DNA from: Tubulanus polymorphus
Lineage: Eukaryota; Animalia; Nemertea
Direction: 5' to 3'
Assembly (NCBI RefSeq): GCF_964204645.1
Contig: NC_134025.1
Span: forward strand, 186,001 to 250,000
DNA length: 64,000 nt
Positions within the stretch are counted from its first letter, which is position 1, and every line of letters begins with the position of its first letter. The notes under the pieces were generated by a model, which saw only the letters and a list, made by a program, of their open reading frames with translations, ran no database searches and was not told the origin of the DNA. This document shows positions 6,401 through 63,105 of the stretch, one piece after another. A program made the translations under genes and the position numbers.

Positions 6401-9202
6401 CACACCTCTCCTGACTCCCCCACCTCTCTCTCCTCTCTCCCCCACCTCTCTCTCCTCTCTCCCCCACCTCTCCACACCTCTCCTGACTCCCCCACCTCTC
6501 TCTCCTCTCTCCCCCACCTCTCTCTCCTCTCTCCCCCACCTCTCTCTCCTCTCTCCCCCACCTCTCCACACCTCTCCTGACTCCCCCACCTCTCTCTCCT
6601 CTCTCCCCCACCTCTCCTGACTCCCCCACCTCTCTCTCCTGACTCCCCCACCTCTCTCTCCTCTCTCCCACCTCTCTCTCCTCTCTCCCCACCTCTCCAC
6701 ACCTCTCCTGACTCCCCCACCTCTCTCTCCTCTCTCCTCTCTCCTTCACCTCTCTCTCCTCTCTCCTCTCTCCCCTCTCTCCTCTCTCCCCCACCTCTCT
6801 CTCCTCTCTCCCCCACCTCTCTCTCCTCTCTCCCCCACCTCTCCTGACTCCCCCACCTCTCTCTCCTCTCTCCTTCACCTCTCCCCTCTCTCCTCTCTCC
6901 CCCACCTCTCTCTCCTCTCTCCCCCACCTCTCCACACCTCTCCTGACTCCCCCACCCTCTCTCCTCTCTCCCCCACCTCTCTCTCCTCTCTCCTCTCTCC
7001 CCTCTCTCCTCACACTTTGTCTCTCTCTCCTCTCTCCTTCACCTCTCTCTCCTCTCTCCTCTCTCCCCTCTCTCCTCTCTCCCCCACCTCTCTCTCCTCT
7101 CTCCCCACCTCTCCACACCTCTCCTGACTCCCCCACCTCTCTCTCCTCTCTCCCCCACCTCTCTCTCCTCTCTCCCCCACCTCTCTCTCCTCTCTCCCCC
7201 ACCTCTCCCCCACCTCTCTCTCCTCTCTCCCCCACCTCTCTCTCCTCTCTCCCCCACCTCTCCACACCTCTCCTGACTCCCCCACCTCTCTCTCCTCTCT
7301 CCTTCACCTCTCTCTCCTCTCTCCTCTCTCCCCTCTCTCCTCTCTCCCCCACCTCTCTCTCCTCTCTCCCCCACCTCTCCACACCTCTCCTGACTCCCCC
7401 CACCTCTCTCTCCTCTCTCCCCCACCTCTCTCTCCTCTCTCCTCTCTCCCCTCTCTCCTCACACTTTGTCTCTCTCTCCTCTCTCCTTCACCTCTCTCTC
7501 CTCTCTCCTCTCTCCCCTCTCTCCTCTCTCCCCCACCTCTCTCTCCTCTCTCCCCACCTCTCCACACCTCTCCTGACTCCCCCACCTCTCTCTCCTCTCT
7601 CCTCTCTCCTTCACCTCTCTCTCCTCTCTCCTCTCTCCCCTCTCTCCTCTCTCCCCCCACCTCTCTCTCCTCTCTCCCCACCTCTCCACACCTCTCCTGA
7701 CTCCCCCACCTCTCCCTTTCCTCCCCCTCTCTCCCCCACCTCTCCCCTACCTCTGCACACCTCCTGTAAGTGAAGTCTTACCTCTAATATAGCTTTACGT
7801 TCAGCATGATGTTTCATTAAATTTACGCTCCAATCCAATAATTTATCACCGCGTGGAATTTTAACGCGTTCATGTTTCAATCGTCCGACTCGGAAATCAT
7901 TAGCGTCGTCACGGTTACGAGAGGTCGGTCCTCTGTTGCGATCTAAAGCGGCGTCTCGTTTATTCTGTAACCAGACGATCGCTCTGTAACCAATGAAATA
8001 CCGTTAATAAAAACATAACTATTAAAGAATAGGGTGAATTGTGACGGAAGCGCGGAGTTACCTGGAAGCTCCGTAAGCCGTTGTGTTGAAATAAAGAGAT
8101 CGAGTTTCAAATGGGAACAACATCGGACACCATTTAGTGAGTTTCTCACACCAATCAGGCAAGGCACCGCTGGCTAATACTAATGGATCCTAAACAATTA
8201 CAATACAAACATTATAGTTCAATAACATCATCACAATCAGTGGCGGCGGCTGCTGCTGCTGCCGCTGATCAATATAGAATATTGTATTTTACAAACCTGA
8301 ATTTGTTGAACGAGTTTGTTTGTGATTTTCTTGCTGGAGAATTCTTCTGATTTTACGTTTGGCTGCGGAACTGATTCTGAATATAGTAATAATATACAAT
8401 TAAAGGGTGTTTATAAAACCCCTTCCTCTGCATGGGTGAGGGGGTGTTTAAGATACCCTCTCCTGATGGGTGAGGGGGTGTTTTAGATACCCTCTCTCCT
8501 GATGGGTGAGGGGGTGTTTTAGATACCCTCTCTCCTGATGGGTGAGGGGGTGTTTTAGATACCCTCTCTCCTGATGGGTGAGGGGGTGTTTTAGATACCC
8601 TCTCTCCTGATGGGTGAGGGGTTGTTTTAGATACCCTCTCTCCTGATGGGTGTGTGTATGAAGCGCGGTAATGAAGTGTAGTTTTTACCTGTAAGTTTAG
8701 AAGGTCCACGTTCCATCGATATTGCATAGAGTAATTGACTTAATTGTAGTACGTCTTCTACACTACAGGCGGCGTCACCGAGGCATAAAGCATCGCTCTC
8801 ACTGACTAACCGTTCTCGACCGGTTTTAACCGCATTCGGCAATGTCTGACATTTCAGGAAAATCCTACAAAACAGCAATAATAACACAAAACATGACACA
8901 AAACTGATTTTAAAACATTTACGATGAAAACAAGGGAGAAAAGTGAAAGAAAGAATAGAGGAGATTTTAGGAAAGTTTTCCAATTTCACACAAATCATAA
9001 CGAACTAAAAGTATCCACAAACGTATTCAAGATTAACATAACACAGTAACAAATAGGGGGAGGAGGGGAGGGAGGGGAGGAGGGGAGGGAGGAGGGGAGG
9101 GAGGGGGGTTAAAAGGGAGCTGCTGCTGGTAAACATGCATTTCAGCTATTAGTGAAATAAAATAAACCTAAAATATAACTGACCACTGGTTTATACCATA
9201 CA

Positions 9203-9293
<91 letters not shown>

Positions 9294-12200
9294 TACACTA
9301 CACTACACTTCACTGCTACACTACACTACACTACACTGTACTATGGTATAGAGGTATACACTGAGTCTGGTATACAAGAGTTTGGTATCCGTTTATATAT
9401 AATACTAATAGATATAGATATATATATATATACATCATAGAGTACACATAATATGAGCTAGTGAACCTGATCTAAAGTTCAACCATCTGCGTAGCTAGGT
9501 TTAAAACTAACTAGGTTTATAGGTCGTAGGTCGTGAGTTGACAGCTCATATTATCAGTATCAGTATATAGAGTAAGGCTAACCTGATAGGCAGCAACAAG
9601 TTGAGAACAATTATGAGTTTTACGGATATTTTTACTGCTTCCAATAAGTTTCCATCGACGTAGGAAAACGTGATCAGCGTTTTGTCGAATGAAATTAATT
9701 ACATCAGATTTAGGCAGCTGTTCGGTGCCCAGGTGATCGTTAATGTAAGATGTCGACCAATATTCCTGTAATATCGCAGAAAAACTATTTCAGGAAATTC
9801 ATCGAGTCAATTGTTTTATTAGTTGAACCAGTTGACAACTAACTTATCTAACCCTTCAGTGACTGACACCCAGCATCCAGTTCCACAACTTGGTTCAGTT
9901 TGAAGTTCATTCATGATATTTGTAACTGTGACACCGTGGAATGGATGCTGGTTTGTGTCTATCAGACATTCTTCATTAAATCTTTCCTTTGTTACCATTC
10001 TTAACTTCAGGGTAAAAGTCAATTTCTAATCAGATTCGTTTTGAAATAATTTCTAATCAGCATTAGACGAGAAAGCAAGCGACGTGGTACTTAAAGCAGA
10101 CACTAGGGGGCGCTCAATACACAATCACAAACAAACATGAGAGACAGACAGTGAGAAAGATTTCTATTCATACAAGCCATGTATTAGTACTGTAGAATAT
10201 ATGCAATGAGGGTTTCATTCCTCACAGGAGAAAACAGGTTTCTCTCCCAGAGGCGGAGGGGTCACAGAGTTCATACTCCGGAGAGAGGGCAGACGGATTC
10301 AAATATGTAGGTCACTCGCTCCACAAACCGTGCCATGCAAAATAGTGAAGCTTTATAGTATTGAAGAGTACTCAAATTACACAACATTTCAGCATTAAAT
10401 ATTACTCAAATTTACTTGATTACTCACCCCTGAATATTCAGCCTCTAAAATCCTCTTTTCTTCGGGTTTCAATTCCTTATAAACAATTCTGAAATAAAGA
10501 CGACAAAATCAATCGAAACGGTTTCTCCATTTTCACAAGCAATTTGAACTAAGAGTTAAGAAGGAGGAGAGAGATGATGAAATATTTACGTGTAAGTTGG
10601 TTCCCAGATCCGTTTCAATCTCTCAGATCGGCTGCTACTCGGTCCTTGTATCATTAACTGTTGCACGTATTTGAATATCGTATCGTGGCTGTCCTTTAGA
10701 TAAATCTCTGAATCTGGCAACTGAAACATTAATTACAATCATTAAACAATGAACACATTAGAACAGATCGGAGGCTGATAAACTATACTTACTCCCGGTA
10801 ATCCGGGTCCCTTCAGGAACAACGCTAGTCGAGGCTGATTAATGTTATCATCTTCAGGAGTACTAGTGGCGCCTTCTATACCTGAAATAATAGCCGTATA
10901 TATTAGAATCACACATCAACGAGAATTGACTCTGGAGTCAGAGTTGCGTAAATCAGGGGCTGCAGTTGCTCAAAAATTGGTTTATGATAACCAGTGGATA
11001 AATACTGCAGTTACGATGAACTTTTAATTGTCGCTATGTCAACTATCCACTGGTTAACTCTAACCAACCATTGAGCGACTGGCCCGAGACTCAGGAGTGA
11101 TTGACTGACCTGGTTGAGGTATTTCGAAGTCCTGCGTCTGCGGTACATTAGTACGTCCTGGTCTCGGGTCGAACGCAGGAATTAAAGCTGAAAATTGACG
11201 TTTTAAAACGAACTCATCGTCCCACGTTCTCCTTCTTCCTCCTTGAACGTCATATTCTTCCTCCTCCTGCATAAAACATAAATTCTAAACATATTTAATA
11301 GAAAACCCTTAAAACGGACTGATTCACTCTAAAACATAGATAATCAACTACAGAAGACCCTGTGTGTCATAGTTCTGAACTGACAGTTCCACAAATCTCA
11401 CGAGAAATTTGAGTTAAAACATTGTATTCACAAATATCTTACAGTTACAAAGACAATATTTCAATATTTTGCAGATTACAATTGATGAATGATATATTTT
11501 CATTTTTCTGTTGTTGAGCTTCAGTTAAAATCTTGATACGTTAGAATTAATTTATCCACCGTCAATTGTGAGATCACATCAGTTGGGCAATTCCAAATGA
11601 GTAACCACGACGATAACTGACACAATTCAAACTTACAATTCCGTCCTCATATTCATCATCATCTTCATTTTCATCGTCGATGTCATCATCGTCATCGTCC
11701 GGGTCGGGTAATTCATCCTCTAATTCAGCGAGTAAACTGGTAGCTCGACACGTTTCTAGGAAGTCGTTATCGCTCTCACTGGACGTCGATGTTAAACTCA
11801 TTGTTAAAGCCTGACTCAATGAAGTCACGTTCCCGACTGCGTTTGATGATGTTAATGTATTCGATGTTCCCGATGAATTACTACACGTCAGGTTCGGGTA
11901 ACTTTGAGCTTGACTTAATAAATTACTTCCTGAAAGACATAACCCGCCTAAAACAACGGTAATATTAAACATGTAGTTTATCTGTCCATCCTGATGAGGT
12001 GGGGGTCCTAGGATCCAGTTTCTATAGTTGTCCCTTCAGTTTAAATCTGTTCATTTGCTTTATTTTGACACAATTGTTTTCCCTGTTTCTCTTCACATCC
12101 TGTTGGGGGAGGGGGAGTCAGAATGTAGCATTGAAACAGAACCCCGTCTAATAGGGTTAGATCATCTTTTGAAGTTTTTAAATCATCAATAAAACATAAT

Positions 12201-15200
12201 CTATCCACGGAATTCTATCATAACTGATTGTATTTCTATTGTGTCAAGAGAATAGAACTATCAGAGTTAAGAGCAAATGTTTGATGATATATTGATATAG
12301 AAATGAAATAATGACTTACTGTTTGAATTAGCTGCTAAAGCTAACCTCGCTAAACTGCTCATATTACTGCTTCTAGTCATATTGTTATTACCACGATTTC
12401 TGCGTAGAACAGCAGAGAACGATTCTAACAAACTGACCGTCTGCTCCGTGCTGCTCGGGAGGTTCGGAACGCTGACGCTCATCGGATTAGTCGGAGAGGT
12501 TCTCGTAGGTCCGTCTGCCGACGCTTTCTTAGCGTCTGCCGCTGTAGCTTTCATCGTTACTTCTTTATTGACAACGTTATTAACCGATTGTTGTACAGGA
12601 GCGCCACCTACAGCTCCTTCCTCAGTACCGTCCTCGCTGCAGTGTACGACGACCGCTTCTAGAAGATTCTCAGAAATATCTTCAGAATCAACGCGTACTT
12701 TAACGGTAGAATTCTCATTGACTAAACTCAATACATTCTCAGCAACACTACGAGCCGCCTGTAATCAGAGAACAACTCAGTGAGTGAGGGAACAGGGGAA
12801 TGGAGAGGTGCAGGGAGTGGAGAGGGAGCAGGGAAATGGAGTGGGAGAGGGGTGTGGAAGGGGAGAAGGGAAATAGAGTGGGAGAGGGGTGTGGAAGGGG
12901 AGCAGGGAGTGGAGGGAGAGGAATGAAAACTTACAGCTTTAACGTGAGCTGTCAGATTCTCAGCAGACGCTGCTTGTTCAGTACTGGATACAGAAACCTT
13001 TGATTCAGAAACATCGCTTAAACTCGGAGTTGAATTACTCTTACGACTTGTCAGAGAACTCGACTAAAATAAACAAATCAATCAAATCAATCGATCAATC
13101 AATCAATCGGTGATCAATTGAGGAGCGAGCGGTCTTTACTACTTACTCGTTTAGCCGGTTCAGCACCAGGTGGCGCGTTATTAGACGATGATTTTTTATT
13201 CACGGTCACCACGGTGATATCTTTAACGACCGATTGTTGAACTAGTTTATCGGGATCGTGAGACGCAGCGAGTTGTAAATCATATTTGCCTTCAGCTCCG
13301 ATACGATACGAGTTTGAACCACCGGAATCCCACGTCACATCAATCCAACCTGATCAACAGCAGACGGATATTAATTTGTGGAGAATAAGAGAAATATTCC
13401 TGGACTCACAGTTCTCAAGTTAGAATACTGAACTAAACTTAACCGACAACCCTGTGGAACTTAGAGTTTAAGACTAAAACCATCTTGGCTCTATAGCTAA
13501 TCTAACAACTAAAGACCAGTCTTAAGGTTTAGGACTTAAGTCACAAATGTACAAATGGGTCCTGGCCTCACTCTTTACTTAGTATAATTTAATTTCCAAT
13601 CGTTTCATTAATTCACAACTGTGGAACTGGGTTCCGAACTGTGGAACTGGGATCTGAAGTTTAATTTTCTCTGAAATCATTTTGATTGAAATAGTTTCAC
13701 ATACCATTGTGTAATTCACCGGTAACTGTACCCTCACCGGGTGGTATACCATCCTGATCGCGCCATTTCCAATCCATACCACGTACAACCCGAGCACCCG
13801 GTACCATCTGTTTTAACACCTGAGTTCTCAACAATCGACGTTGTTTACGCAGATTTGCTTCGGCTTCTTTCGCTGCTTTACCTTAAATACGTGAGAGAGA
13901 GATGAGAGTGAGCAGAGAGTGTGAGCAGAGAGCAGGGGAGAGGAGAGTGAGGGGAGAGAGAGGAGAGTGAGGGGAGCGGAGAGAGGGAGGAGAAAGAGAG
14001 GGGAGAGAGACGGGAGAGAGGGAGAGAGAGGGGGAGGGAGGGAGAGATGAGAGTGAGCAGAGAGAGGGGAGAGGAAGAGTGAGGGGAGCAGAGAGGGGGA
14101 GAGAGGGGAGGGAGACAGCAGGAGGAGAGGAGAGCAGGGGGAGAGAGGAGAGTGGGCAGAGGGAGAGAGGAGAGGGGGGAGAGGGGAGAGAGGAGAGAAA
14201 GGAGGGGTAGGAGAGAGTGAAAGCATAAGGTTGATAAGGGTCGCACGTACCTATATCATCACATACACCAGTAACAGTTCCATAAATCTCAAACCCAGAT
14301 AATGATAAATAATGCGTCTGCCCGCTGGCGTTCTTTCCTGTCTGTTGTAATCTGATATGTCTCCAACCTTGTTTCTCATCAGAGGGCGCTTCAATCGGCC
14401 ACGATGCAGTCGAACTATAAACAGATGAATCAAACATTGAAATCATTCATTAACTAATAACATAACAATATCAATGGGGAGAGGGGGTTGATTCATGGAG
14501 GGGGAGGGGGTTTATTCATACCCAGGTTCATTTAGTGATGTATCATCTACATGATTATATAAACTCAACCACGTCTGTCCATCTTTAGACACTTGAAATT
14601 GCCAATTTCTTAAAGCTGAACGACTGCAAATAAGAGAAATAATGATCGTGTTTATAAAAGCTGAATAAATGATTAATTGTACAAGTTGTCTTGTAGAGGT
14701 GCCGTGGTAGTACTGGTAACCAATCTCTACAAGATTTTCTTCATCGTGAAAACTTAACAGTGCTGCCATTGATTGATTGATATGCAGGGCTGCCAACCTC
14801 TGAAATGTACTATTAGTAACAAATTGAATTATTTTCAGTAACATTTCATTGAAATATGAAAGAAAATGTTCAAATTAATCAGTAATCAACAGTAAGACCC
14901 TCAGTAACATCTCTCATATTCCTGTATGCATCAAACAAATCTAATCAGTATTTTTCATCATAAAAGAGTAACAAATACTGAAAATCAATAACAGTTGGCA
15001 GCTCTGGATGTACGTAATGAGTTAGTGATGCTCACCTGCCATATCCTCGAGCATGTCTGAGAGTATATGACGTGGGTATTACCCATAATCCTAAATCAAT
15101 AGCAAACCACGCTTTCCTAAAATAACATAAAACAAACATACTTCAATCTAACAGCCCTTAAAATCAGATGATATTTTGAAATTTGAATTTGAACTGTTAT

Positions 15201-18200
15201 AACTGACTTACTTGTCGTCGTTAGTATGACAGTTAAGAGCAGACGTCTCGCGACTCAGTATATCATCTAAACGACCGTATGGTAAATTACGACCTTCCGA
15301 TGACGATACGACTACTAAACCATATTGAGCTGGATTCACCCATTCAAACGCACTTCTATAACATATATACATATATACAGTCAGTGAAAGAGAGAGGGGA
15401 GAGGAGAGGGAGCGGGGAGGGAGGAGAGAGGGGAGGGAGGATAGGGGAGAGGAGAGGGAGAGGAGGGAGAATAGGGGAGAGGAGGGAGAGGAGGTAGGAG
15501 AGCCGGGGAGAGAGGAGAGGGGAGGGAGGAGAGAGGGGAGGGGGAGATGGAGAGAATCAAAAAAATATCTACCATCAAAATGAAGATTATCAATCAGAAT
15601 TTATAGTCTGTTCTTGTTGTCTGAATATATTGACTGTTTTAATTTATGGCTAGTCTCAACAGATGAGAATCAAGCAACTAATGTGGAACACACTGGTGGA
15701 ACACACCGTGGAACACACTATAGAGAGGGGACGGATGAGGGCAGGGGTAAAACACGTACCTGGCATTCGTTCCGATCCAATAAATAATTCCATTCTCGTC
15801 GAAGTCTCGTTGATGATTGAATTTCAGATGAATATTTGATTCTTTCAGTCGTTTTACAAAATTAATCGTGTTACGTTCAAAATCATACCATTGCTTAGCA
15901 ACCTATAACAATACAATACGTTATTGATCTCTGAAAGCAGACGGATGCAGCCAGACGGACGCAGCCAGACGGATATTTAATGATTGATTCTTTTACTCAC
16001 CATTTTGAGTAAATATCTCTCGAGAGCTCCGACTGTAGTCAGTGGCTCCATCTTTAGGTTACGACCAGATCTATCGATGAGTGATGTTTCACCGGACGAC
16101 CGTTGCAGACGGAAACGCAATCGACGAGTTAATATCTAACAACAATACAATAAATAACGGTCGTGTATCAGGTGCATAGTCACGGAAATTCAATACTTGT
16201 GTTCATACTATTTACATCAATCTAGTTTTTGTAAAATTTTCATCGAGAGAGATGAAAATTCAACACAGTTTTCATCAAATATTCAATCAGTTTTTTAATT
16301 GTGAGTCAATGGACAACTGATTATGTGAAGAACCAAGACTTTGTAAAAAATCTAAGGAGTTTCAAGGAATTCTAGAGTAGTTTCTCAAGTTTAGGGGAGA
16401 TTAAAGGTCATTGAAAAAAATCCGTCAACCGAAAGGAGTTTTCAAGGAATCAAGGAGTAGATGATCCTAGTATGAACTGGGAATACAGATAAATACAGAC
16501 CTGTAATCCATATCCAGATCCTGACGTATCGTAGGAAAACACAGGCAGTTTCTCAATAGATTCTAAAACTGATATCAGTTTCCTGATAAACGCTACAAAC
16601 GGACTCGTAGATCTAAAAATAGAAATAATACCACGGTTTGAGAGCCTGTAGATAATTACTGTAGCATTCAAACCACGGTTTGAGAGCCTGTAGATAATTA
16701 CTGTAGTTATCAAACCACGGTTTGAGAGCCTGTAGATAATTACTGTAGTATTCAAACCACGGTTTGAGAGCCTGTAGATAATTACTGCAGTATTCAAACC
16801 ACGGTTTGAGAGCCTGTAGATAATTACTGTAGCATTCAAACCATGGTTTGAGAGCCTGTAGATAATTACTGTGGTATTCAAACCACGGTTTGAGAGCCTG
16901 TAGATAATTACTGTGGTATTCAAACCACGGTTTGAGAGCCTGTAGATAATTACTGTAGTATTCAAACCACGGTTTGAGAGCCTGTAGATAATTACTGCGG
17001 TATTCAAACCACGGTTTGAGAGCCTGTAGATAATTACTGTAGTATTCAAACCACGGTTTGAGAGCCTGTAGATAATTACTGCGGTATTCAAACCACGGTT
17101 TGAGAGCCTGTAGATAATTACTGTAGCATTCAAACCACGGTTTGAGAGCCTGTAGATAATTACTGTAGTATTCAAACCACGGTTTGAGAGCCTGTAGATA
17201 ATTACTGTAGCATTCAAACCACGGTTTGAGAGCCTGTAGATAATTACTGCAGTATTCAAACCACGGTTTGAGAGCCTGTAGATAATTACTGTAGTATTCA
17301 AACCACGGTTTGAGAGCCTGTAGATAATTACTGTAGTAATCAAACCACGGTTTGAGAGCCTGTAGATAATTACTGTAGTATTCAAACCACGGTTTGAGAG
17401 CCTGTAGATAATTACTGTAGTATTCAAACCACGGTTTGAGAGCCTGTAGATAATTACTGTAGTATTCAAACCACGGTTTGAGAGCCTGTAGATAATTACT
17501 GTAGTATTCAAACCACGGTTTGAGAGCCTGTAGATAATTACTGTAGTATTCAAACCACGGTTTGAGAGCCTGTAGATAATTACTGTAGTATTCAAACCAC
17601 GGTTTGAGAGCCTGTAGATAATTACTGCAGTATTCAAACCACGGTTTGAGAGCCTGTAGATAATTACTGTAGTATTCAAACCACGGTTTGAGAGCCTGTA
17701 GATAATTACTGCAGTATTCAAACCACGGTTTGAGAGCCTGTAGATAATTACTGTAGTATTCAAACCACGGTTTGAGAGCCTGTAGATAATTACTGTAGTA
17801 TTCAAACCACGGTTTGAGAGCCTGTAGATAATTACTGTAGTATTCAAACCACGGTTTGAGAGCCTGTAGATAATTACTGCAGTATTCAAACCACGGTTTG
17901 AGAGCCTGTAGATAATTACTGTAGTAATCAAACCACGGTTTGAGAGCCTGTAGATAATTACTGTAGTATTCAAACCACGGTTTGAGAGCCTGTAGATAAT
18001 TACTGTAGTATTCAAACCACGGTTTGAGAGCCTGTAGATAATTACTGTAGTATTCAAACCACGGTTTGAGAGCCTGTAGATAATTACTGTAGTATTCAAA
18101 CCACGGTTTGAGAGCCTGTAGATAATTACTGTAGTATTCAAACCACGGTTTGAGAGCCTGTAGATAATTACTGTAGTATTCAAACCACGGTTTGAGAGCC

Positions 18201-21200
18201 TGTAGATAATTACTGCAGTATTCAAACCACGGTTTGAGAGCCTGTAGATAATTACTGCAGTATTCAAACCACGGTTTGAGAGCCTGTAGATAATTACTGT
18301 AGTTATCAAACCACGGTTTGAGAGCCTGTAGATAATTACTGCAGTATTTAAACCACGGTTTGAGAGCCTGTAGATAATTACTGCAGTATTCAAACCACGG
18401 TTTGAGAGCCTGTAGATAATTACTGTAGTAATCAAACCACGGTTTGAGAGCCTGTAGATAATTACTGTAGTAATCAAACCACGGTTTGAGAGCCTGTAGA
18501 TAATTACTGTAGAATTCAAACCATGGTTAAGACTTACTCATCATCGTGCTCGGCGCCGGTAAATGCACATTTAAACACATTGATTCTTTCTTGTACTAAA
18601 CGCGTTGTTTCTGTGTCGTTCATAGCTTCATTATTCTAAATAAACACGAGCAAAATAGTTTACACAAAATATCCACACAAACAGGGAGATATTCCCGCTA
18701 CACAGGTTACTATTCATGTACTCACGTAATCAAGGCAGTTGAGCATAGCTTGTACTAAACCACTACTATGTAACTCATAAGCTGAGATCATCTGTTCGTC
18801 TTTTAATAAATATGTGAATTCATTAAGAGCGTTGTTTAATTCATCTTTCCATTCGGGTTCTTCATCGGTCTACAATATATATAATTATACAGCGTGAATA
18901 CATTGAAGTGTTATCACAGTAGAATGAAAGGGGATTCACCTCAACATCTCAATCACTTATACTTAGTTAATTCAATTAGAAATATAAATATAGAGATGAC
19001 TTCAGTAATATGATAACCCCATTCAACTCCCATCTCTGACCAAATTCTGAGGTATATTTGAAACCAGATTTAAACCATTTGAAATGAACTGATTTCAACT
19101 GCTAGGAGTAAAACTGAACTGAGGGCGAACAGCGTGGCAGAGATTAATAATTACCTGTAGTTCGATAGCTGATTCCATACGTTGCACGATACTACATAGT
19201 TTAGCTACCACCCCTCTCGGAGTGGCCTGTGCCACTTTGAAATGATCATCGTATAATTCACGCGCCAAAACTTTTATCTACAACAGATATATTCAGTACA
19301 GGTTATCAGATATCACAGACAAGCACGGCCGGTTTTATAAAGTGACTTCAATTAAAATGTGTTAGTCACGATAAGACAACGTTAGGCCTCAAGGTTCTAA
19401 AAACCATGATTCAGAATATTCATGTATTTCACCGGTTCAGGGTCAAATCATGAATTCTCTTTCAGATACAGGAAAATGAGTCGACAATTGACTTCACTAA
19501 AACTAGTTTAATATTCTCAATATTATTCTTGTTTGAAGAGTTGAATCAGTTTTAGTATATTTACCTTCTGTCGAACTGCCTCCACTTTAGATCGGTATTT
19601 TTTACTTCGTTTACCCGTCCAGCCGGGAGCGAAATCACTTCCTAGCGACGTCTCTGCCGTAAACGAGTGCTTCGTCCCTCGATTCGATTCAAATATAAAA
19701 CCCGGTAAATCTTCACGTAGTATCGTCGCCTAGCAACAAATAACAATATAGTTATAACATGCACAATAACAATTGACGACTAATTTCAGGATCCAGTTCA
19801 GCAGGGAAATAAAACATTAATGTACTCATCATATTCAATCATTTATTTGAAGATTTGGTCTAAAATGAGAACAGGGTCCGCTGTTGTAAACCAGTGGATA
19901 GTTGACATAGTGACAATTAAAACTTGTTACTATGGTGTTTATCTACCAGTTAACTTAACCAACTTTTAAGCGACTGCAGCTCCAGAAATTTTAGTTAAAT
20001 CATTCTGTTGAACTGGTGGCAGGTGTGATGTAGTGTTGAACTTACTTGTTGTCCATCAGAGTTGTGAATTACGAGTTCTGATGGTTTTTTACAGGATATC
20101 GACCAATTACCGACCGTTATTCTAGACGGACTCATTCCGGATAAAACCGGTTGACTCAACATTCCTGTTCGAACTTGATTTCGAGCTCGCTGTAATTTCT
20201 CCAAGAATTCACCGCGATTTTCTGTAATATTCAATCAACTCTAAATCAACATTTATTCACGATTAATTTTCTGAAATTCACAAGTCACTTTAAGAGGATA
20301 TTATTAATGGGTTGAGGGTGTGTCTCATCTCGAGTAAGGGTCGAGAAACCAGAGAAAACCTTCAACCAAGAAACTAAAACCCTAACCAGGTTTCGAACCC
20401 ATGAAACCTGGATTGGTGAGAGACCAGTCACTGACCAGTGAGGCCAGTATAAAACTGACCAGTGAGGCCAGTATGACACTGACTAGTGAAGCCACTATGA
20501 GCCTCACTCTACTGTAAGTATCTTACCTGAACTATCAGATCCACCTTCAGGACTTCCACTAGAATACATCGTAGCTAGTTTACCGTCTAATATAAAACGG
20601 AACCAACCGTTGGAGCCGTTAGATAATTCTAAAGCAGCCGCGTCACTCCAGATATATAAACAATCTCTTCCTCGGGCTATACACCAATCCTTCCAGTTGT
20701 ACGGTTTACCTTGTAATATCTCTTTAGCATCTTCTACACTCGTCTCTTCATTCTGTTATAACAAAACATTCAATTACTGATTATATACAGTTCATTTAGA
20801 TAAACCCAGTCCTAGTTAAATAACCAGTTCAATGGTTGCTCAATTCACGCACAGATCCAGCAGCCAGATAGGACTTAACACATGAAATCTGGCTGCAAGG
20901 ATAGTTTTATGAATTTGTATATCTGATTAAAGCTACTCTGCAGATACAAATTATCAGAAACAGTTTCCTACATCGTCCAGTTTTCTTTGGAAAAATTTCA
21001 GCAAATCTTTTTTTTTCAAATCTATAAGATTGATCAGTTATTTCTATGTATCAGAAACTTGTTCAACTAAATACCTTATCATCAGATCGCGTAGAGTCAT
21101 CGTCATCTATACCGGGTCCGGCTAAAGCCATCACTTTATCAAATACACCTAACCTCGCAAAGTGTTCCAAAAATACATCGCGAGCTTTTGATATGAGATC

Positions 21201-24200
21201 CTGAATGACCTGTAGAGCCGTTAAATGTCCGTCTTCATCCTCCTTAAATAAACAATAAACTCCAGATACTCCTAGAGTAGAGACAAACAGTTGTAATCGG
21301 AGATTAAAGTACAGCGGGAGTATATTTTACCTCATGATCGAGAACCATAGCGAGAACCTCGGCTAATAACGACGCGTAATTTGGCTGCGAACATAATTCA
21401 ATAAGTACCGAATCACTGGCGTAATGAATCATCTTCTTAATCAATGATAAACTAGCTCTCCTGGAAAATATAAACTCATGGGCTCAATAAACTAGCTCTC
21501 CTGAAAAATATAAACTCATGGGCTGAATAAACTAGCTCTCCTGAAAAATATAAACTCATGGGGCTCGATAAACTAGCTCTCCTAAAAAATATAAACTCAT
21601 GGGCTCAATAAACTAGCTCTCCTGAAAAATATAAACTCATGGGCTCAATAAACTAGCTCTCCTAAAAAATATAAACTCATGGGCTCAATAAACTAGCTCT
21701 CCTAAAAAATATAAACTCATGGGCTCAATAAACTAGCTCTCCTAAAAAATATAAACTCATGGGCTCAATAAACTAGCTCTCCTAAAAAATATAAACTCAT
21801 GGGGCTCGATAAACTAGCTCTCCTGAAAAATATAAACTCATGGGCTCAATAAACTAGCTCTCCTGAAAAATATAAACTCATGGGCTCAATAAACTAGCTC
21901 TCCTAAAAATATAAACTCATGGGCTCAATAAACTAGCTCTCCTAAAAATATAAACTCATGGGGCTCGATAAACTAGCTCTCCTGAAAAATATAAACTCAT
22001 GGGCTCAATAAACTAGCTCTCCTGAAAAATATAAACTCATGGGCTCGATAAACTAGCTCTCCTAAAAAATATAAACTCATGGGCTCAATAAACTAGCTCT
22101 CCTGAAAAATATAAACTCATGGGCTCAATAAAATAGCTCTCCTGAAAAATATAAACTCATGGGCTCAATAAACTAGCTCTCCTAAAAAATATAAACTCAT
22201 GGGCTCGATAAACTAGCTCTCCTAAAAAATATAAACTCATGGGCTCAATAAACTAGCTCTCCTGAAAAATATAAACTCATGGGCTCAATTAACTAGCTCT
22301 CCTGAAAAATATAAACTCATGGGCTCAATAAACTAGCTCTCCTGGAAAATATAAACTCATGGGCTCAATAAACTAGCTCTCCTAAAAATATAAACTCATG
22401 GGCTCAATAAACTAGCTCTCCTAAAAATATAAACTCATGGGCTCAATAAACTAGCTCTCCTGAAAAATATAAACTCATGGGCTCAATAAACTAGCTCTCC
22501 TAAAAAATATAAACTCATGGGGCTCAATAAACTAGCTCTCCTGAAAAATATAAACTCATGGGCTCAATAAACTAGCTCTCCTAAAAAATATAAACTCATG
22601 GGGCTCAATAAACTAGCTCTCCTGAAAAATATAAACTCATGGGGCTCGATAAACTAGCTCTCCTAAAAAATATAAACTCATGGGGCTCAATAAACTAGCT
22701 CTCCTGAAAAATATAAACTCATGGGCTCAATAAACTAGCTCTCCTAAAAAATATAAACTCATGGGGCTCAATAAACTAGCTCTCCTGAAAAATATAAACT
22801 CATGGGCTCAATAAACTAGCTCTCCTAAAAAATATAAACTCATGGGGCTCAATAAACTAGCTCTCCTGAAAAATATACACTCATGGGGCTCGATAAACTA
22901 GCTCTCCTAAAAAATATAAACTCATGGGGCTCAATAAACTAGCTCTCCTGAAAAATATAAACTCATGGGCTCAATAAACTAGCTCTCCTAAAAAATAATA
23001 ACTCATGGGGCTCAATAAACTAGCTCTCCTGAAAAATATAAACTCATGGGGCTCGATAAACTAGCTCTCCTAAAAAATATAAACTCATGGGGCTCAATAA
23101 ACTAGCTCTCCTGAAAAATATAAACTCATGGGGCTCGATAAACTAGCTCTCCTAAAAAATATAAACTCATGGGGCTCAATAAACTAGCTCTCCTGAAAAA
23201 TATAAACTCATGGGGCTCAATAAACTAGCTCTCCTGAAAAATATAAACTCATGGGGCTCGATAAACTAGCTCTCCTGAAAAATATAAACTCATGGGGCTC
23301 GATAAACTAGCTCTCCTGAAAAATATAAACTCATGGAGCTCGATAAACTAGCTCTCCTGAAAAATATAAACTCATGGGGCTCGATAAACTAGCTCTCCTG
23401 AAAAATATAAACTCATGGGGCTCGATAAACTAGCTCTCCTGAAAAATATAAACTCATGGGGCTCGATAAACTAGCTCTCCTGAAAAATATAAACTCATGG
23501 GGCTCGATAAACTAGCTCTCCTGAAAAATATAAACTCATGGGCTCAATAAACTAGCTCTCCTAAAAAATATAAACTCATGGGGCTCAATAAACTAGCTCT
23601 CCTGAAAAATATAAACTCATGGGGCTCGATAAACTAGCTCTCCTAAAAAATATAAACTCATGGGGCTCAATAAACTAGCTCTCCTGAAAAATATAAACTC
23701 ATGGGCTCAATAAACTAGCTCTCCTAAAAAATATAAACTCATGGGGCTCAATAAACTAGCTCTCCTGAAAAATATAAACTCATGGGGCTCGATAAACTAG
23801 CTCTCCTGAAAAATATAAACTCATGGGGCTCGATAAACTAGCTCTCCTGAAAAATATAAACTCATGGAGCTCGATAAACTAGCTCTCCTGAAAAATATAA
23901 ACTCATGGGGCTCAATAAACTAGCTCTCCTGAAAAATATAAACTCATGGGGCTCGATAAACTAGCTCTCCTGAAAAATATAAACTCATGGGGCTCGATAA
24001 ACTAGCTCTCCTGAAAAATATAAACTCATGGGGCTCGATAAACTAGCTCTCCTGAAAAATATAAACTCATGGGCTCAATAAACTAGCTCTCCTAAAAAAT
24101 ATAAACTCATGGGGCTCGATAAACTAGCTCTCCTGAAAAATATAAACTCATGGGGCTCGATAAACTAGCTCTCCTAAAAAATATAAACTCATGGGGCTCA

Positions 24201-27200
24201 ATAAACTAGCTCTCCTGAAAAATATAAACTCATGGGCTCGATAAACTAGCTCTCCTAAAAAATATAAACTCATGGGGCTCAATAAACTAGCTCTCCTGAA
24301 AAATATAAACTCATGGGGCTCGATAAACTAGCTCTCCTAAAAAATATAAACTCATGGGGCTCAATAAACTAGCTCTCCTGAAAAATATAAACTCATGGGG
24401 CTCGATAAACTAGCTCTCCTGAAAAATATAAACTCATGGGGCTCAATAAACTAGCTCTCCTGAAAAATATAAACTCATGGGGCTCGATAAACTAGCTCTC
24501 CTGAAAAATATAAACTCATGGGGCTCAATAAACTAGCTCTCCTGAAAAATATAAACTCATGGGGCTCGATAAACTAGCTCTCCTGAAAAATATAAACTCA
24601 TGGGGCTCGATAAACTAGCTCTCCTGAAAAATATAAACTCATGGGGCTCGATAAACTAGCTCTCCTGAAAAATATAAACTCATGGAGCTCGATAAACTAG
24701 CTCTCCTGAAAAATATAAACTCATGGGGCTCAATAAACTAGCTCTCCTGAAAAATATAAACTCATGGGGCTCGATAAACTAGCTCTCCTGAAAAATATAA
24801 ACTCATGGGGCTCGATAAACTAGCTCTCCTGAAAAATATAAACTCATGGGGCTCGATAAACTAGCTCTCCTGAAAAATATAAACTCATGGGCTCAATAAA
24901 CTAGCTCTCAGACAAGAAATAATCAAATTTGATGATGTTGAGTTTGTGAGTATAAATACTGACCTGACTGAAGGTAACATTGTACTCTGATAAACACTTG
25001 TAAACTGCGGTAGTAAAGTCAATAAATATCGCGGAGCCATTTCTGGGTCTCCTTTAGGTTCGTCCGGTTCTATTTCTATTTCTGGTTGTTGAGGTTTTTT
25101 CTCCTCAGTAGGTGTCGCTACCGTCGCGTTGTTATCACTATTTGTAGGTTCTCTATTCGGGACTGCAACCATCCATTCTCCCGGTGATTGTAGAATCTGA
25201 ATGACCTCTCTGTGACCTTCGTCTCCTCGTTCCCGGGCTTTATCTAACGGAGTCTTACCATCTTCATCTCGTAAATCGGGATTAGCTCCGTATCTTAGCA
25301 ACGTCTATAACAATACATATTACAATTTGAATATTGAGTGTGATTTAGACCAGAAAGCCTGATGGTTCTAGGGGACTGAGGGTTCTAGGCGACTGATGGT
25401 TCAGGGAGGGGACTGAGGGTTCAGGCTACAGTGTAATAAAATCAACGTAGTGCTTATATTTTCAGGTAACCAAAAAACACGTATAGATATAAATATACTG
25501 TACTAAAAATACTATCATCACAGACTGGTTTTAATGATTTATTTATGATGTCGCATTGTGTGTATTACTCATAGTAACAGCAGGAATACACGCGTGTCAT
25601 ATAAACACACACATTCTCAACATCTGTTCTATATTTACTACTTAACTAATCGCAATAGATATCAGACCCTGTACTCGTATCATTGACCTTATCAGCCTGT
25701 AACCTGCAGCCCCCTATATCAGTCATTCAGTATTTCACCCGAGACTTTTTTATCAAAATTGAACTACAAACACCAGACTTATGATATTTTATACCAGACA
25801 TTTTTAACAATACATTAGACTTGATCAGCAAAATTTCAAAAACTGATCGTTCCACATTTGACACAACAACTAAATATGTGAGGTGTGCGGGATGTCTAAC
25901 GTAATTATAAATAGCTGGATTATGAGTCGAAATGAATGCTGATCTTTATTATAGAATGAATATTTTCAGTACCTTTACAATCTGTGGACGACCGAAGCAG
26001 GCTGCGTAGTGTAAAGATGAAGATCTCAAACCTCTGTTTACATCAGCCGAACGCTCGCATAGAAATTCAACCATCTCTTGAGTTCCGAAAGCTGACGCCC
26101 AATTCAACAACGTCTGACCGACATCATCCATAAAATTCACATCAAATCCTTCAATTTATCAAAATAAATACGTAATTTAACAATAATATTTCCATCATCT
26201 GCTTGAGGCATCAATGAAATGAATTCAGTTACACAAATCTTAAGTTAGACATTTCCTAAGCTTCAACTGAGGAGTCAAATATCAATTTTAGAACTGACTC
26301 CCACATAAGGGGTCTTAACTCATTAACTAATTTCATTTTCAATCTTCTCAGTTTTCAATTATTGTGATAATTTCTACAATTTTCTGGCAGGTAGCAGCAT
26401 TTATCATAAATCAATTTGGCTTTATTTTTTGGAAAGAGATAAAGACAATCGCATCAGAACCAAATCCACAGAGCTCAGATTTAACCGTGTAACTGGATGC
26501 TGTATTTACCTGTATCTACTGCATCAATAAGAGCATCGGTATCTTTACTTCTGATACAATCAATAAGTTGTCTATGAGATCGTTCACCAGCGCTGTCCAT
26601 ACGTCTCAAACCCGGTATACGACTGCAGATTCCTGCTGTACCTGATTTAGGTAAAGCTTTACGTCCTTCAAACAGTAAAACTAATAATAAATCTGATAAC
26701 CTCATCGTGTCCAAAACACATCTGAAAAACAGTGAATAAATACAATACACTGACAGTGATATCAATCAGGGGTGGGCTGATAGTCAAACCGTGGTTAGTG
26801 GCTTATCTGTGGTTAGGCTAACCGGCTTACAATAAGAGGCCACGCGAAGACAATGGTCATAGCTAACAGCGTTTTCCTGCGCCCATTTATGCCTAACTGC
26901 GGTCAGCACTAACAGGGTTTTCCAGGTTATGTAACTCATATCTTGATAATCTATTCTTGGAGCCTATTGTAGAAGGGAAGATCAGCGCGGCTGCTTTCAA
27001 ACCATTTACAAATTTCAAAGAGTTTTCTCTGATTTCTCTACGTCACACAAGACCAAATTTCCTGAGTGAATCAGCAGATGAATGGAAAGATCTCTTTGTT
27101 TGAAATGTTACCATTAATTTTTTCATGAATCTTGCCTGAAGAAACGTGTGGTTAATAACATATCAGTATTCCAGGTCAGTGGCGCCACCGTGTGTTCCGA

Positions 27201-30200
27201 TTCGTAACTGATGACTGCACGGATAATTCAACTCACCTTTCATCTCCTTTCAACGCGCATTCAATAGCTTCAGGTAGAGATGATCTCAACATGTTATGAG
27301 TGACTCCCGGTGAACCTCGGCATAACGTAGACAATAAACTAATCACAGTAGATATACTAGGACTACTCTTAGTCTCCGGAGTAGCGGCACTTGCTCCGGG
27401 AGTAGCCGGAGTATTACCGGGTCCTCCGGCGTTGGATAAACGTTGGAGTAGATCATCGACTAGACCGTGTTGAGCGAGAGGAGCTGGATCTACATTCCTC
27501 CGGGTGAATCTATCAGCAAGAGACGCAAAACATCTCAACGCTCCATCAGCAACCTGTAATATATACACACAACTGAGACAGTTAGACACACAGGGTACTG
27601 TATGGGGTGCATGAAGACTGCTGATTGGGTAACACTGAGGGAGGCTGGACAGATTCACTGGGCTACCCATCGGGTATTGCCCTCACCCTCCCCCGCTGTG
27701 GGAGGATGGACAGCATACAGGGCACTGGAGGGGTGCATGAAGACTGCTGATTGGGTAACGCTGAGGGAGGCTGGACAGATTCACAGGGCTACCCATCGGG
27801 TATTGTCCTCACCCTCTCCTGCTGTGGGAGGATGGACAGCATACAGGGCACTGTGTAGGGGTGCATGAAGACTGCTGATTGGGTAACACTGAGGGAGGCT
27901 GGACAGATTCACAGGGCTACCCATCGGGTATTGCCCTCACCCTCCCCCGCTGCGGGAGGATGGACAGCATACAGGGCACTGGAGGGGTGCATGAAGACTG
28001 CTGATTGGGTAACACTGAGGGAGGCTGGACAGATTCACAGGGCTACCCATCGGGTATTGCCCTCACCCTCTCCCGCTGCGGGAGGATGGACAGGATACAG
28101 GGCACGGGAGGGGTGCATGAAGACTGCTGATTGGGTAACACTGAGGGAGGCTGGACAGATTCACAGGGCTACCCATCGGGTATTGCCCTCACCCTCCCCC
28201 GCTGCGGGAGGATGGACAGCATACAGGGCACTGGAGGGGTGCATGAAGACTGCTGATTGGGTAACGCTGAGGGAGGCTGGACAGATTCACAGGGCTACCC
28301 ATCGGGTATTGCCCTCACCCTCTCCTGCTGCGGGAGGATGGACGGCATACAGATTCACAGTTGTTCTGCAGCTTTACTGTTTTTATTACATCTTATTTTG
28401 GATTTATTGTCACTTCTCAAATGAACCATGACTTAAAACAGCAGCATAAAATGATTGTTGGTTGAAATCGTTCCTGAGACCCGTGAAATTCTGTGGGATA
28501 TTTATTCATTTGTGAAATGGTATTAAAACCAGGTAAATGATAGAAATTGACAAACGCTCTTTATTTCATCAATCATTTTATTATGGGAAAAGTTAATTAG
28601 TGATTAGCACATTGAGTTGTTTATTTGCTGCAGCAAATTAGAAATTCTAAAATGCTTTAGGTGCTGAAAGTGTCATGGCATGGCATGGCCTGTAGCCACC
28701 CACAACAATCAACTATGACTTTAATTGAATTCAGTTAAAGTGACCAGTGACATCACAGTCACTCATGACAAGCAGCTAACCCTAAGCCTAGGTCAGGTGA
28801 CCAGTGACATCACAGTCACTCAGGTCAAGCAGCTAACCCTAACCCTAGGTCAGGTGACCAGTGACATCACAGCCACTCAGTACTGGTAGCTAACCCTAAC
28901 CCTAGGTCAGCTGACCAGTGACATCACAGTCACTCAGTACTAACAGCTAACCCTAACCCTAGGTCAGCTGACCAATGACATCACAGTCACTCAGTACTAA
29001 CAGCTAACCCTAACCCTAGGTCAGCTGACCAATGACATCACAGTCACTCAGTACTAGCAGCTAACCCTAACCCTAGGTCAGCTGACCAGTGACATCACAG
29101 CCACTCATGACAAGCAGCTAACCCTAACCCTAGGTCAGCTGACCAATGACATCACAGTCACTCATGACAAGCAGCTAACCCTAACCCTAGGTCAGGTGAC
29201 CAGTGACATCACAGTCCCTCAGTACTAGCAGCTAACCCTAACCCTAGGTCAGCCAGTGACATCACAGTTGAGCAGGCAAATGACCTTTGCTGACACAGAT
29301 TCAGATACAATCATACCTACACTGTGTATAGTGGATATATTATACAGTAGATACAGGATACACAATACAGGATACATTGGATACACAATACAGTGGATAG
29401 AGTGGATACACAATACAGTGGATAGAGTGGATACACAATACAGTGGATAGAGTGTAACTTACAAATTGATCTTCATGTTTCAGTAAAGTAGACAGAGACT
29501 CTACACATGATGCTAATGAAACGTCTTGTGGCTCCATCTTTCCGCAAAGACGAGAAACGACAGACATCGCTGAGTGTAAGGTATCTTTATGAACCTGTGA
29601 TCCGTGTTCTCTGATGAACGTCAGAACGCAGTTTAAACCGGATGATTCAAATACGGCTCCAGATTCTCGTGTACAAATCAATTCTAACACCTATAACACA
29701 ATAAACTCACATCAGTAAAACAGTCTACAGTCACTACAGAGGAACCTCGTTATAACAATATCAGATATATCGATTTTTTGATTATTACAAACATAGAATT
29801 TCATCCCGACTGAGACAATCTTAGATTTTACTACAGTTTATATTACCTTCCCACTGACAATGTGGTGCTAGATTTACTAAACATTAGAGGTGACATGTCA
29901 TATGTTACTGTTCAAATCACCAGAGTTGTTCATGACTTAATTTGCTAGTGAGCCGAGGTTCTACTGTATATAGAGCTCAGTTATAACGAACAGATTTTTG
30001 GGTTCACTGAAGTTCGTTGTAACGAGGTTCCATTAGATTAAAACTTTCCGCATCTATTCCTGGAGTAAATAAATCTCTTACCTTGATACATTGTTCGGCT
30101 AAATCGAGACTAGTACGAGATGAAATCTCCACGACAACCAGACGATTACAGATAGCTTTAATAGCGCCATCTACAGCCACGATACGTCGAGTACATTCAG

Positions 30201-31352
30201 CAGAAACGTCCAGATAATACGTGACAGCACGAGCCGTGACCTCGAGGACATTATCAGGAGCGCATTCATCCAGGAATATACGACATAGAGCTGGCAGGAA
30301 CGTACGTGGAGGACAACTAGAAATATAACATCATTACAGTTACTGTAACTCTCTCTGGTGTATGATGATAGCATTATTAAGCCCTATAAGTAAGGGTTTA
30401 TGGCTAAAGGACCACAGACAATGAGTTTCAAAACCTGCATACGATCGAAAACAGTTATTGGTATCGTATATCATTAAAATAACAAGTAGTATCTACCGAA
30501 GCCGTTATTGTATTATTGCTCAGAGGCGACATTATCTGATATATGGTGCTAGTCATTGTAATAGGTGATAAACGACCACAAACTGCTATATCTACAGAAG
30601 TCTATACTCTGATCCACACTGCAGGAACTAATCAATCACCATTAAATCTTTCAAACCTTATTAAACAATTCTTATTTTGAAGATATTTTCAAATGAAATA
30701 GACGGTAGCGCTAGGGTCTAAATAAATTCAAAGGTAATTTCAAACGTAATTTATTCTTCAATGATTTATTGAATTTATAAGTTGAATCATATCCTAACAG
30801 GTGTTTATTATATAAACTTGGCATCAACCCAACAATAGCTACGTTACACCTAGGTTAGTGGTGTATTAGATCACTTTCCCTTTTATCTCTCTTTGTTTTC
30901 TTAGATATTACTTTTATCAGCCAACACTAACTCCTAGCAGGAAAAACAATCGCAATCTGTTATATTCTGAATATTAGAGATGTAGAGACTAAACTAAAGT
31001 CACTCGTATTGTAATCAAAATCATGAAATTCTGACTCATCAAAACAAGAAATAAATATATATATTTTAGAAAATGATGCAATCAATTGAAATCAACAATA
31101 AAACCTCAGAACCAAATACTGACGTGTATAATATGAACCCTACTGTACCGGGGAGGGGAGGGGGAGTTGGGGGTTTAGGGGAGGAAGACTTTAGGGTGGT
31201 GCGACTATTTACCTTTCGAAACAGCGATCGACATTATCAGACATAAGTAATAACATACAGAGCTGTTCTAACGCTATCAGCTGCATATCTCTCTCATCGC
31301 CCTGACCCATCTGTAACCATTCTAACAGAGTCTCCGGATCTACTTCAGCCAT
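3481..31352 (-). CDS. HECTD1: E3 ubiquitin-protein ligase HECTD1 (ARM-like N-terminus, ankyrin repeats, SUN/galactose-binding-like domain, MIB/HERC2 domain, HECT), about 40 coding exons
   Basis: The first coding exon 31213-31352 reads [46 protein letters not shown] (HECTD1 N-terminus). Further exons include 30082-30316, 29463-29690, 27237-27553 and 26510-26721, ankyrin exons ([23 protein letters not shown]; [21 protein letters not shown]), [31 protein letters not shown] and [29 protein letters not shown]. The HECT end reads [15 protein letters not shown]...[17 protein letters not shown]...KGFHLN-stop (3481). GT-AG junctions checked were phase-compatible. A candidate AATAAA lies at 2334-2329. 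Confidence 0.97.
5880..7760. repeat. Intronic CT-rich (polypyrimidine/polypurine) complex satellite
   Basis: Built from ctctctcccccacctct and cacacctctcctgactccccca units. It is the source of the G/E/R-rich spurious ORFs. Confidence 0.95.
8432..8650. repeat. 36-bp intronic minisatellite (~6 copies)
   Basis: Unit gagggggtgttttagataccctctctcctgatgggt. Confidence 0.9.
9205..9340. repeat. (TA)n microsatellite followed by (CTACA)n
   Basis: Directly visible. Confidence 0.95.
13890..14220. repeat. Intronic AG-rich low-complexity tract
   Basis: Directly visible. Similar tracts occur at 12780-12925, 15385-15555 and 39025-39148. Confidence 0.9.
16631..18528. repeat. 42-bp minisatellite (~45 copies) filling a HECTD1 intron
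   Basis: Unit ccacggtttgagagcctgtagataattactgtagtattcaaa. It lies between the donor at ~18537 (minus GA|gtaagt) and the acceptor at ~16613 (ttttag|ATCTACG). Confidence 0.95.
21449..24908. repeat. 40/41-bp minisatellite (~85 copies), each copy containing the HECTD1 3' splice acceptor and exon start
   Basis: The minus-strand unit cccatgagtttatatttttcag|GAGAGCTAGTTTATtgag matches the true acceptor ...ttttccag|GAGAGCTAGTTTATCATTGATTAAG ([14 protein letters not shown]). Confidence 0.95.
27602..28350. repeat. 126-bp intronic tandem repeat (~6 copies)
   Basis: The ATGAAGACTGCT motif recurs at 27991, 28117 and 28243. Confidence 0.9.
28740..29270. repeat. 57-bp intronic tandem repeat with a (CCCTAA)2 core (~9 copies)
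   Basis: Unit gaccagtgacatcacagtcactcagtactagcagctaaccctaaccctaggtcagct. Confidence 0.9.
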
Positions 31353-45428: not shown

Positions 45429-45515
45429 ACATGAAAAATAAAGACGTGCATTTTGTATAAAGTTTCATTTCGTAGTTTGTTCTTCATTTTGAGATTAACC
45501 AGAGAATCGTAAAGG

Positions 45516-46225
45516 ATCTACAGGGGTGTCCCGGGTTCGAACCCGGTAATTACTGATTCAGTGTGGTACTGATGCTGAATAGAGGATGGACAGGGGTGTC
45601 CCGCGTTCGAACCTAGTAATTACTGATACTGATTCAGAGTGGTCCTGATGCTGAATAGAGGATGTACAGGGGTGTCATGGGTAGAATCCAGTAATTACTG
45701 ATACTGATTCAGAGTGGTCCTGATGCTGAATAGAGGATGTACAGGGGTGTCCCGGGTACAAACCCATGAGTGGTCCAAGTTGTCCTGATGCTGAATAAAG
45801 GATGTACAGGGGTGTCCTGACCGTACGGTGCTGCCGCTATGCTCATCGTTAGCGGTATTTTCATACACTAACGTTAGTCAACTCTGGCAATCGACGTGCT
45901 GTCCAGTTGTACTCCGTGACTTTAGCTTGCCAGAGTTGACTAACGTTAGTGTATGAAAATACCGCTAACGATGAGCATAGAGGCAGCACCGCACGGTAAA
46001 ATGTTGATATCTTAACAAAAGTAATTACTGATAATTGATTCAGAGCGGCCGTACTGATGCTGAATAGAGTATGTATGGGGATGTCCCGGGTTCGAACCCA
46101 GTAATTACTGATACTGATTCAGAGTGGTCCTGAATGCTGAATTGAGGATGTACAGGGATGTCCTGGGTAGAACCCAGCAATTACTGATACTGATTCAGAG
46201 TGGTCCTGATGCTGAATAGAGGATG
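45516..46225. repeat. 76-bp B-box-containing satellite, same family as 1740-2262 in inverted orientation
   Basis: Unit gatgctgaatagaggatgtacaggggtgtcccgggttcgaacccagtaattactgatactgattcagagtggtcct. It is interrupted by the hairpin element at 45820-45997, and a partial copy lies at ~46470-46525. Confidence 0.9.
45820..45997. mobile_element. Fold-back / MITE-like element: 71-bp inverted arms and a 36-nt loop
   Basis: 45820-45890 is the reverse complement of 45927-45997 with 2 mismatches. No target-site duplication is evident. Confidence 0.7.
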
Positions 46226-46268
46226 AACAGGGTGCCAAGCGAGGAGAGGATATCGAGATTTCTTACGT

Positions 46269-62997: not shown

Positions 62998-63105
62998 GGC
63001 ACGCGAGACTCGCGCGAGTTGGAAGGCGTGGTCTGGGCTCCTCTTCTGTCAACCATTGTGTGATGAACCCGCGAAATTTGGTCACCTCGAGAGGGGTATA
63101 AAAAC
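62998..63105 (+). promoter_or_regulatory. achaete-scute promoter: Hairy/E(spl) class C site and TATA box
   Basis: GGCACGCGAG at 62998-63007 and TATAAAA at ~63097. CAGCTG E-boxes lie further upstream at 62642 and 62661. Confidence 0.65.

Follow-up and report, generated by a model that had tools for sequence, protein, structure and literature searches.

How does splicing find the correct acceptor when one intron offers 85 of them? The question is raised by a gene that we assign to HECTD1, a ubiquitin ligase, in the nemertean Tubulanus polymorphus, within the window analyzed here, a stretch of 64,000 nt (NCBI RefSeq assembly GCF_964204645.1, contig NC_134025.1, positions 186,001 to 250,000 of the forward strand; coordinates below count from its first base). 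One HECTD1 intron, 3,503 nt long on the minus strand and running from a GT at 24963 to an AG at 21461, contains 54 nt of unique sequence, and 98% of it is a minisatellite whose unit straddles the intron/exon boundary, yielding 84 decoy acceptors in addition to the real one. One assembled transcript contig indicates that the last copy is the one used. The array is probably a tolerated by-product of repeat slippage, with the last copy selected through recognition of the exon as a unit, the downstream donor pairing with the nearest acceptor before the true exon. The features on which the argument turns are the following.

3484..31352, minus strand: HECTD1 gene, approximate span, with the start codon taken from an open reading frame (ORF) and the 3′ end from the last homology hit (ORFs, homologues, Pfam, tblastn exon chains)
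24964..25304, minus strand: 341-nt upstream exon, which ends in phase 2 (run X2, spliced contig; translation)
24910..24963, minus strand: donor (GT at 24963-24962) and 54 unique intron bases (sequence; donor score)
21447..24909, minus strand: minisatellite, 85.3 units of 39-41 nt (Tandem Repeats Finder, TRF; unit catalogue; variant polarity)
24869..24871, minus strand: decoy acceptor 1, closest to the donor, whose use would give a 94-nt intron
21500..21502, minus strand: decoy acceptor 84, closest to the real site, whose use would add 40 nt and bring a stop at the ninth codon
21460..21462, minus strand: real acceptor, with its AG at 21462-21461 and exon base 1 at 21460 (X2 contig; homologue alignment)
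21331..21460, minus strand: focal exon, 130 nt, with purine-rich, exon-like sequence starting past base 14
21243..21330, minus strand: next intron, 88 nt, donor 8.6 bits (joint in contigs of runs X2 and X5; scoring)

Over 21447-24909, TRF reports a period of 41, 85.3 copies, and 96% matches, and on the minus strand 85 occurrences of a 10-nt junction motif, composed of the AG and the first bases of the exon, extend from 24869 to 21460, with 84 intervals of 41 nt (52 of them), 40 nt (29), or 39 nt (3). Each unit joins 26 nt of intron end, with its AG, to the first 14 bases of the exon. These 14 exon bases, which encode residues conserved in homologues, stand at both ends of the array, and the unit catalogue distinguishes 17 variants. 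Such an arrangement is far beyond chance. An initial interpretation made from the DNA letters (hereafter the sequence-only reading) had described a unit lying across the intron/exon boundary, about 85 copies, and ~55 nt of unique intron. The TRF result, the motif catalogue, and the 54-nt count agree with this, except that only 84 of the 85 motif copies are decoys, the remaining one being the real site, and that the feature bounds it gave need correction, the focal exon being the 130 nt from 21460 to 21331. It had also likened every copy to the real acceptor: the AG is indeed kept in all decoys, with 84 of 84 ending in CAG or TAG, but the CCAG ending of the real site is shared by one decoy only, copy 63.

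The unique part of the intron (24910-24963, minus strand) is stop-free in the exon frame and closes with a pyrimidine-rich run, immediately followed by a perfect copy of the 14 exon bases, without an AG. Its score as an acceptor, 2.3 bits, is exceeded at 131 of 4,912 intron-interior positions and by 29 of 37 true acceptors, and is suggestive of what may be a dead older acceptor. The idea that this flank is a decayed repeat unit was not significant and was set aside, 734 of 2000 shuffles scoring as high.

Five sequencing runs cover the neighboring stretch, none recorded as RNA; X2 and X5 are taken as RNA-like from their spliced contigs, and four runs were aligned on each flank of the array as assembled contigs, which lose rare forms. 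In X2, a contig of 4,717 nt, jointed at known introns, connects 24964 to 21460, the last acceptor, just as the sequence-only reading had anticipated in stating that splicing skips the upstream acceptors; this one contig passes 84 of them. In the X2 record, piece 24963-25304 lies next to piece 21330-21463, and at either side the sequence of the loose end is that of the other exon. Among the joints and loose ends listed for X2, none connects the donor with a decoy, in contigs of a kind that lose rare forms. The same run also holds a 71-nt repeat-only contig of the commonest 41-nt variant, at depth 5 versus 67 for the message. The remaining RNA-like run, X5, which comes from a second study, ends at 21411, short of the junction, and X3 and X4 continue through introns and leave 24936-25026 uncovered; all three are silent on acceptor choice. 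The array itself is real DNA, supported as at least ~35 units by the seven repeat contigs listed for the DNA-like run X1, a lower bound that carries no allele lengths. Both X1 and X4 bridge the acceptor-side edge.

The name HECTD1, already given by the sequence-only reading, is upheld by homology and by domain content. HECTD1-named proteins are present among the homologues of the upstream exon (258 proteins found from 371 candidates), and in a Pfam scan of 12 ORFs, three in the HECTD1 gene match Ank, MIB_HERC2, and BTHB, one matches Nucleoporin_N, and eight have no match. The three HECTD1 matches fall in exons other than the focal exon. Named HECTD1 similarity extends along the gene, with the ankyrin, MIB_HERC2, and BTHB domains in order, and exons are chained by tblastn from ~29690 down to 3484; a homologue search with the BTHB exon returned 0 matches in a first library and 61 in a second. 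When 24964 is joined to 21460, the translated frame stays open, and 88 of the 120 listed homologues cover this junction, 77 of them in gap-free alignment. The 11 gapped rows diverge 3-5 residues past the junction and, to judge from their sequences, probably represent read-through introns.

Use of any decoy would introduce a premature stop (84/84), within 30 codons for 82 of them, at ~36 codons for copy 82, and at the end of ORF 24148-24327 for one. Even the 29 decoys with added length divisible by three stop inside the array, and all these stops lie far 5′ of many later junctions. The two decoys closest to the exon would lengthen it by 40 and 80 nt; these lengths, as well as the stop produced by copy 84, are those that the sequence-only reading had predicted for the nearest decoys. 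A coding role for the array was rejected, there being 79-88 stops in each of the three minus-strand frames and a longest open run of 59 codons.

What, then, selects the last acceptor? Acceptors and donors were scored with a matrix built from 37 local introns. The real acceptor reaches 6.6 bits and the decoys 6.4-11.4 bits (median 8.8), and since 80 of the 84 decoys beat the real site, acceptor strength is ruled out as the selector. A sharper puzzle, which the sequence-only reading missed, is posed by the donor-nearest decoy: its use would make an intron of 94 nt, a common length here. The choice is therefore explained neither by strength nor by proximity to the upstream donor. RNA structure is ruled out as the main selector as well: the predicted openness of the last eight intron bases is 0.15 at the real site, within the range of the decoys (0.014-0.27, median 0.083). 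The donor at 24963 scores 8.8 bits, compared with a median of 7.8 for the 37 local donors.

The exon side of the junction offers a better explanation. The last copy is the acceptor closest to the donor at 21330, which is 130 nt away and scores 8.6 bits, and the GT sites inside the array score at most 2.9 bits versus the local median of 7.8, leaving the decoys without a donor partner. In addition, a composition model built on exon (4 kb) and intron (5.7 kb) sequence, with in-sample reference values, scores bases +15 to +40 as exon-like behind the real site (3-mers, 0.14; 4-mers, 0.16) and below zero behind 84 of 84 decoys. In human genes, splice sites that have long introns around them are paired across the exon, and the class with a long upstream and a short downstream intron mimics exon definition (PMC9225289; here and below, published systems are described from parts of the papers cited). 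Cross-exon recognition is the likely selector, and the strong exon definition or enhancers proposed in the sequence-only reading correspond to the explanation that best fits the donor scores and the exon-like composition.

In the model that we favor, a tandem duplication at the gene's own junction, followed by local turnover, would have generated the array. Since host codons are part of the unit, it arose at this junction; unit variants occur in local runs and along a gradient, those of 41 nt toward the donor and those of 40 nt toward the exon, as is expected from local duplication and ordinary minisatellite turnover. The exon would then be recognized as a unit, with the donor at 21330 pairing with the nearest acceptor that precedes true exon sequence, and enhancer-like exon sequence from base 15 on may help this cross-exon pairing. 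Nonsense-mediated decay (NMD) would clear any rare decoy products, and the array itself would have no function. An origin as a transposon-internal satellite was considered and rejected, because codons of the host gene are found within the unit and the array runs into the exon without a break. The setting is also relevant. TRF returns 90 rows in the window, and HECTD1 and the neighboring gene Nup133 together have 13 high-identity arrays, two of which lie across junctions, the rough chance being 28-41% for each. This count used an incomplete list of HECTD1 junctions; two of the arrays of that gene were checked by eye, and those at 20429-20500 and 28741-29268 were assigned to introns solely on the basis of the exon chain. 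With 2 of 13, the arrays of these two genes are not enriched at junctions, and an array at a junction therefore calls for no particular cause here. The simplest reading is that, in a region rich in minisatellites, the array is a by-product that is tolerated.

Junction-spanning minisatellites have already been described in lancelets under the name of mirages, a class with which the sequence-only reading did not connect the array, and the HECTD1 array is a member of this class, to which it adds a nemertean case. Lancelet mirages are tandem copies of an intron/exon boundary that keep the splice signals, vary in length, and leave splicing undisturbed, and in amphioxus they reside in Adh3, troponin C, the globins BflGb6 and BflGb9, and PGBD5 (PMC3087553, PMC3902484). 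Like these minisatellite-like boundary copies, the HECTD1 unit lies across a host intron/exon boundary, its copies keep the AG, and regular splicing at the authentic site goes on, as found in one contig of one sample. The BflGb6 mirage is likewise of the acceptor type, and the unit lengths reported for amphioxus, 10-160 nt, include that of the HECTD1 unit. The amphioxus mirages differ in having a lancelet host and, for the globins and PGBD5, in comprising 2-7 units as opposed to 85 here; the HECTD1 array fills nearly all (98%) of its intron. Two further marks of the class are length instability, between haplotypes or in soma, and concerted evolution within an array whose edge units diverge; on these the HECTD1 data give a lower bound of ~35 units, variants in runs and along a gradient, and a 5′ flank without significant likeness to the unit. 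A search by title and abstract opening, in a literature collection missing most subscription journals, found no mirage in a nemertean.

Human genes also contain junction-spanning variable number tandem repeats (VNTRs), namely those of F7 intron 7 (37 bp), 6-16, CBS intron 13, LMNB2, and PDGF intron 4; splicing is normal in F7, LMNB2, and PDGF, and 6-16 and CBS make use of the two closest pseudo-sites (PMC1557585). As in HECTD1, each unit carries a splice site and the copy adjoining the exon is used, with leakage to at most the two nearest copies in the human genes. In contrast to the HECTD1 array, the human repeats are donors, number 5-25 copies, and were explained by 5′-to-3′ scanning (PMC1557585). 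The exon-centric proximity rule found in human genes fits HECTD1 more directly, in that a long upstream and a short downstream intron flank the exon and the acceptor nearest the downstream donor wins, although the human cases are pairs of sites as opposed to 85 here, and the first few copies of the array lie within the range in which an upstream preference applies (PMC9225289). The acceptor chosen in HECTD1 is the last to be transcribed, and first-come scanning therefore cannot explain its choice. A further known system of stop-bearing isoforms is autoregulation by poison exons through alternative splicing coupled to NMD. The alternative acceptors of the HECTD1 array would similarly give early stops, but the array has no conserved cassette, no detected isoform, and no sign of regulation.

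Several observations weigh against recognition of the exon as a unit, of which the first few decoys are the weakest point. Splicing to decoy 1 would remove an intron of 94 nt by way of a better acceptor; among the 37 local introns, 16 do not exceed 100 nt, and intron definition predicts that decoy 1 is used. Moreover, human short introns strongly prefer the upstream acceptor (PMC9225289). The pairing rule is itself derived from human data, and the in-sample reference values of the composition model call for similar caution. A single contig from one sample spans the intron, and contigs do not show the absence of minor forms. The repeat-only contig of X2 could be unspliced RNA, DNA, or a decoy product, and by analogy with human 6-16 and CBS some leak to the decoys is likely.

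Such a leak could be large but masked: decoys might often be used, chiefly the first few (intron lengths 94-217 nt) or the final two, with their products removed by NMD or by failed downstream splicing, at a cost and with no regulation. We consider this unlikely. It would accommodate the ordinary intron length and the stronger acceptor of decoy 1, the early stops behind all 84 decoys, far 5′ of many later junctions, the low-depth repeat-only contig, and the human precedents, both the preference of short introns for the upstream acceptor (PMC9225289) and the use of the nearest pseudo-sites in 6-16 and CBS (PMC1557585). However, no donor-to-decoy joint or loose end is found among those listed for X2, and the array has reached 3.5 kb in a conserved gene, where a large leak would presumably be costly. 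A more elaborate proposal, to which we give hardly any credence, is that allele-variable array length sets the share of message that is decoy-spliced and decayed, HECTD1 dose being tuned under selection. The anatomy permits this, with 84 strong acceptors all leading to stops, and lancelet mirages are length-unstable (PMC3087553). Nevertheless, decoy use is not seen among the joints listed, the near-identical units (96% matches) point to recent turnover, and similar arrays abound in the window without being tied to junctions; a conservation scan of one metagenome gave 0 matches, which has little weight for an animal. The copy-number-tuned NMD leak that the sequence-only reading had invoked to set HECTD1 dose is without support, no decoy joint being among those listed and neither length variation nor conservation having been seen. 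The boldest claim that could be made of the locus is that it forms a length-variable rheostat, its 84 strong acceptors sending to decay a share of the HECTD1 message that depends on copy number and so, as an acceptor-type repeat, setting how much of this conserved ubiquitin ligase is made, or, short of that, that it provides a spiralian natural experiment on cross-exon pairing; taken as a whole, we regard this as a long shot. In the natural-experiment version, a spiralian with many 70-100-nt introns bypasses a perfect 94-nt intron in favor of a cross-exon pairing 3.4 kb away.

It is also conceivable, and in our estimate very improbable, that the array exists but that its length is an assembly error, either collapsed or inflated. 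There are no long reads among the runs on record, X1 reaches 21 array bases past the donor-side edge, below the 31 bases required for a bridge, and the lengths and depths of its repeat contigs, from which the ~35 units derive, have no one-to-one match to the assembly graph. Against such an error stand the bridging of the acceptor-side edge by X1 and X4, the depths of 157-722 among the X1 repeat contigs listed, compared with 30.8 for the flank, and the ordered gradient of the 17 unit variants, which is unlike an assembly loop; in addition, X1 differs from the window at ~40 places and may therefore be another allele. The concern that the array is an assembly artefact, then, is answered by the X1 contigs as regards its existence; of its length they support ~35 units or more out of the 85 assembled.

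The locus also has an experimental interest of its own. The 85 acceptors share near-identical upstream sequence and are set apart by their position and by the sequence beyond base 14, making them a test bed for acceptor choice. Counts of junctions would show, in a phylum that has received little study, how far cross-exon pairing and exon sequence outweigh the strength of an acceptor and its proximity across a short intron. Were decoy use to scale with allele length, gene dose would be under a mutable control, of which there is no sign here.

HECTD1 contains a further large array, a 42-nt repeat of 45 units at 16630-18528 within the intron 18537-16613 (minus strand). Each of its units has an acceptor-like site, in frame and stop-free, the use of which would add 11 to ~630 residues; the unit is not derived from the junction, and homologues fit the distal acceptor at 16612 without insertion.

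The gene next to HECTD1, Nup133, matches the protein P0121 (NCBI: Tubulanus polymorphus) in 33 exact blocks separated by 32 GT/GC-AG introns. HECTD1 (minus strand) and Nup133 (plus strand) are arranged head to head, with start codons, annotated or read from the ORF, at 31352 and 32563, ~1.2 kb apart. Nup133 harbors a second mirage, of the donor type, at 32906-34027 (plus strand) in the intron 32930-34098; its 44-nt unit comprises the last ~27 exon bases and the start of the intron, giving 26 copies of the GT donor motif. The P0121 isoform fits a GC donor at 32930, 3 nt 5′ of the first GT at 32933, and the next three copies would give stops. This array matches the human donor VNTRs more closely than the HECTD1 array does. 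Another Nup133 intron, of 2,899 nt, is filled by a 26-nt array of 110 units (39318-42137, plus strand) that starts 14 nt past the donor.

Elsewhere in the window, a 75/76-nt repeat family is found at 1746-2261 and 45513-46232 and, since the two places are on opposite strands, is likely dispersed. By inspection, the exons at 49960-56557 (minus strand) look like those of a cadherin-repeat gene and those at 59214-60136 (plus strand) like a globin-like gene, and the ORF at 63067-63909 (plus strand) presumably encodes an achaete-scute-like bHLH protein.

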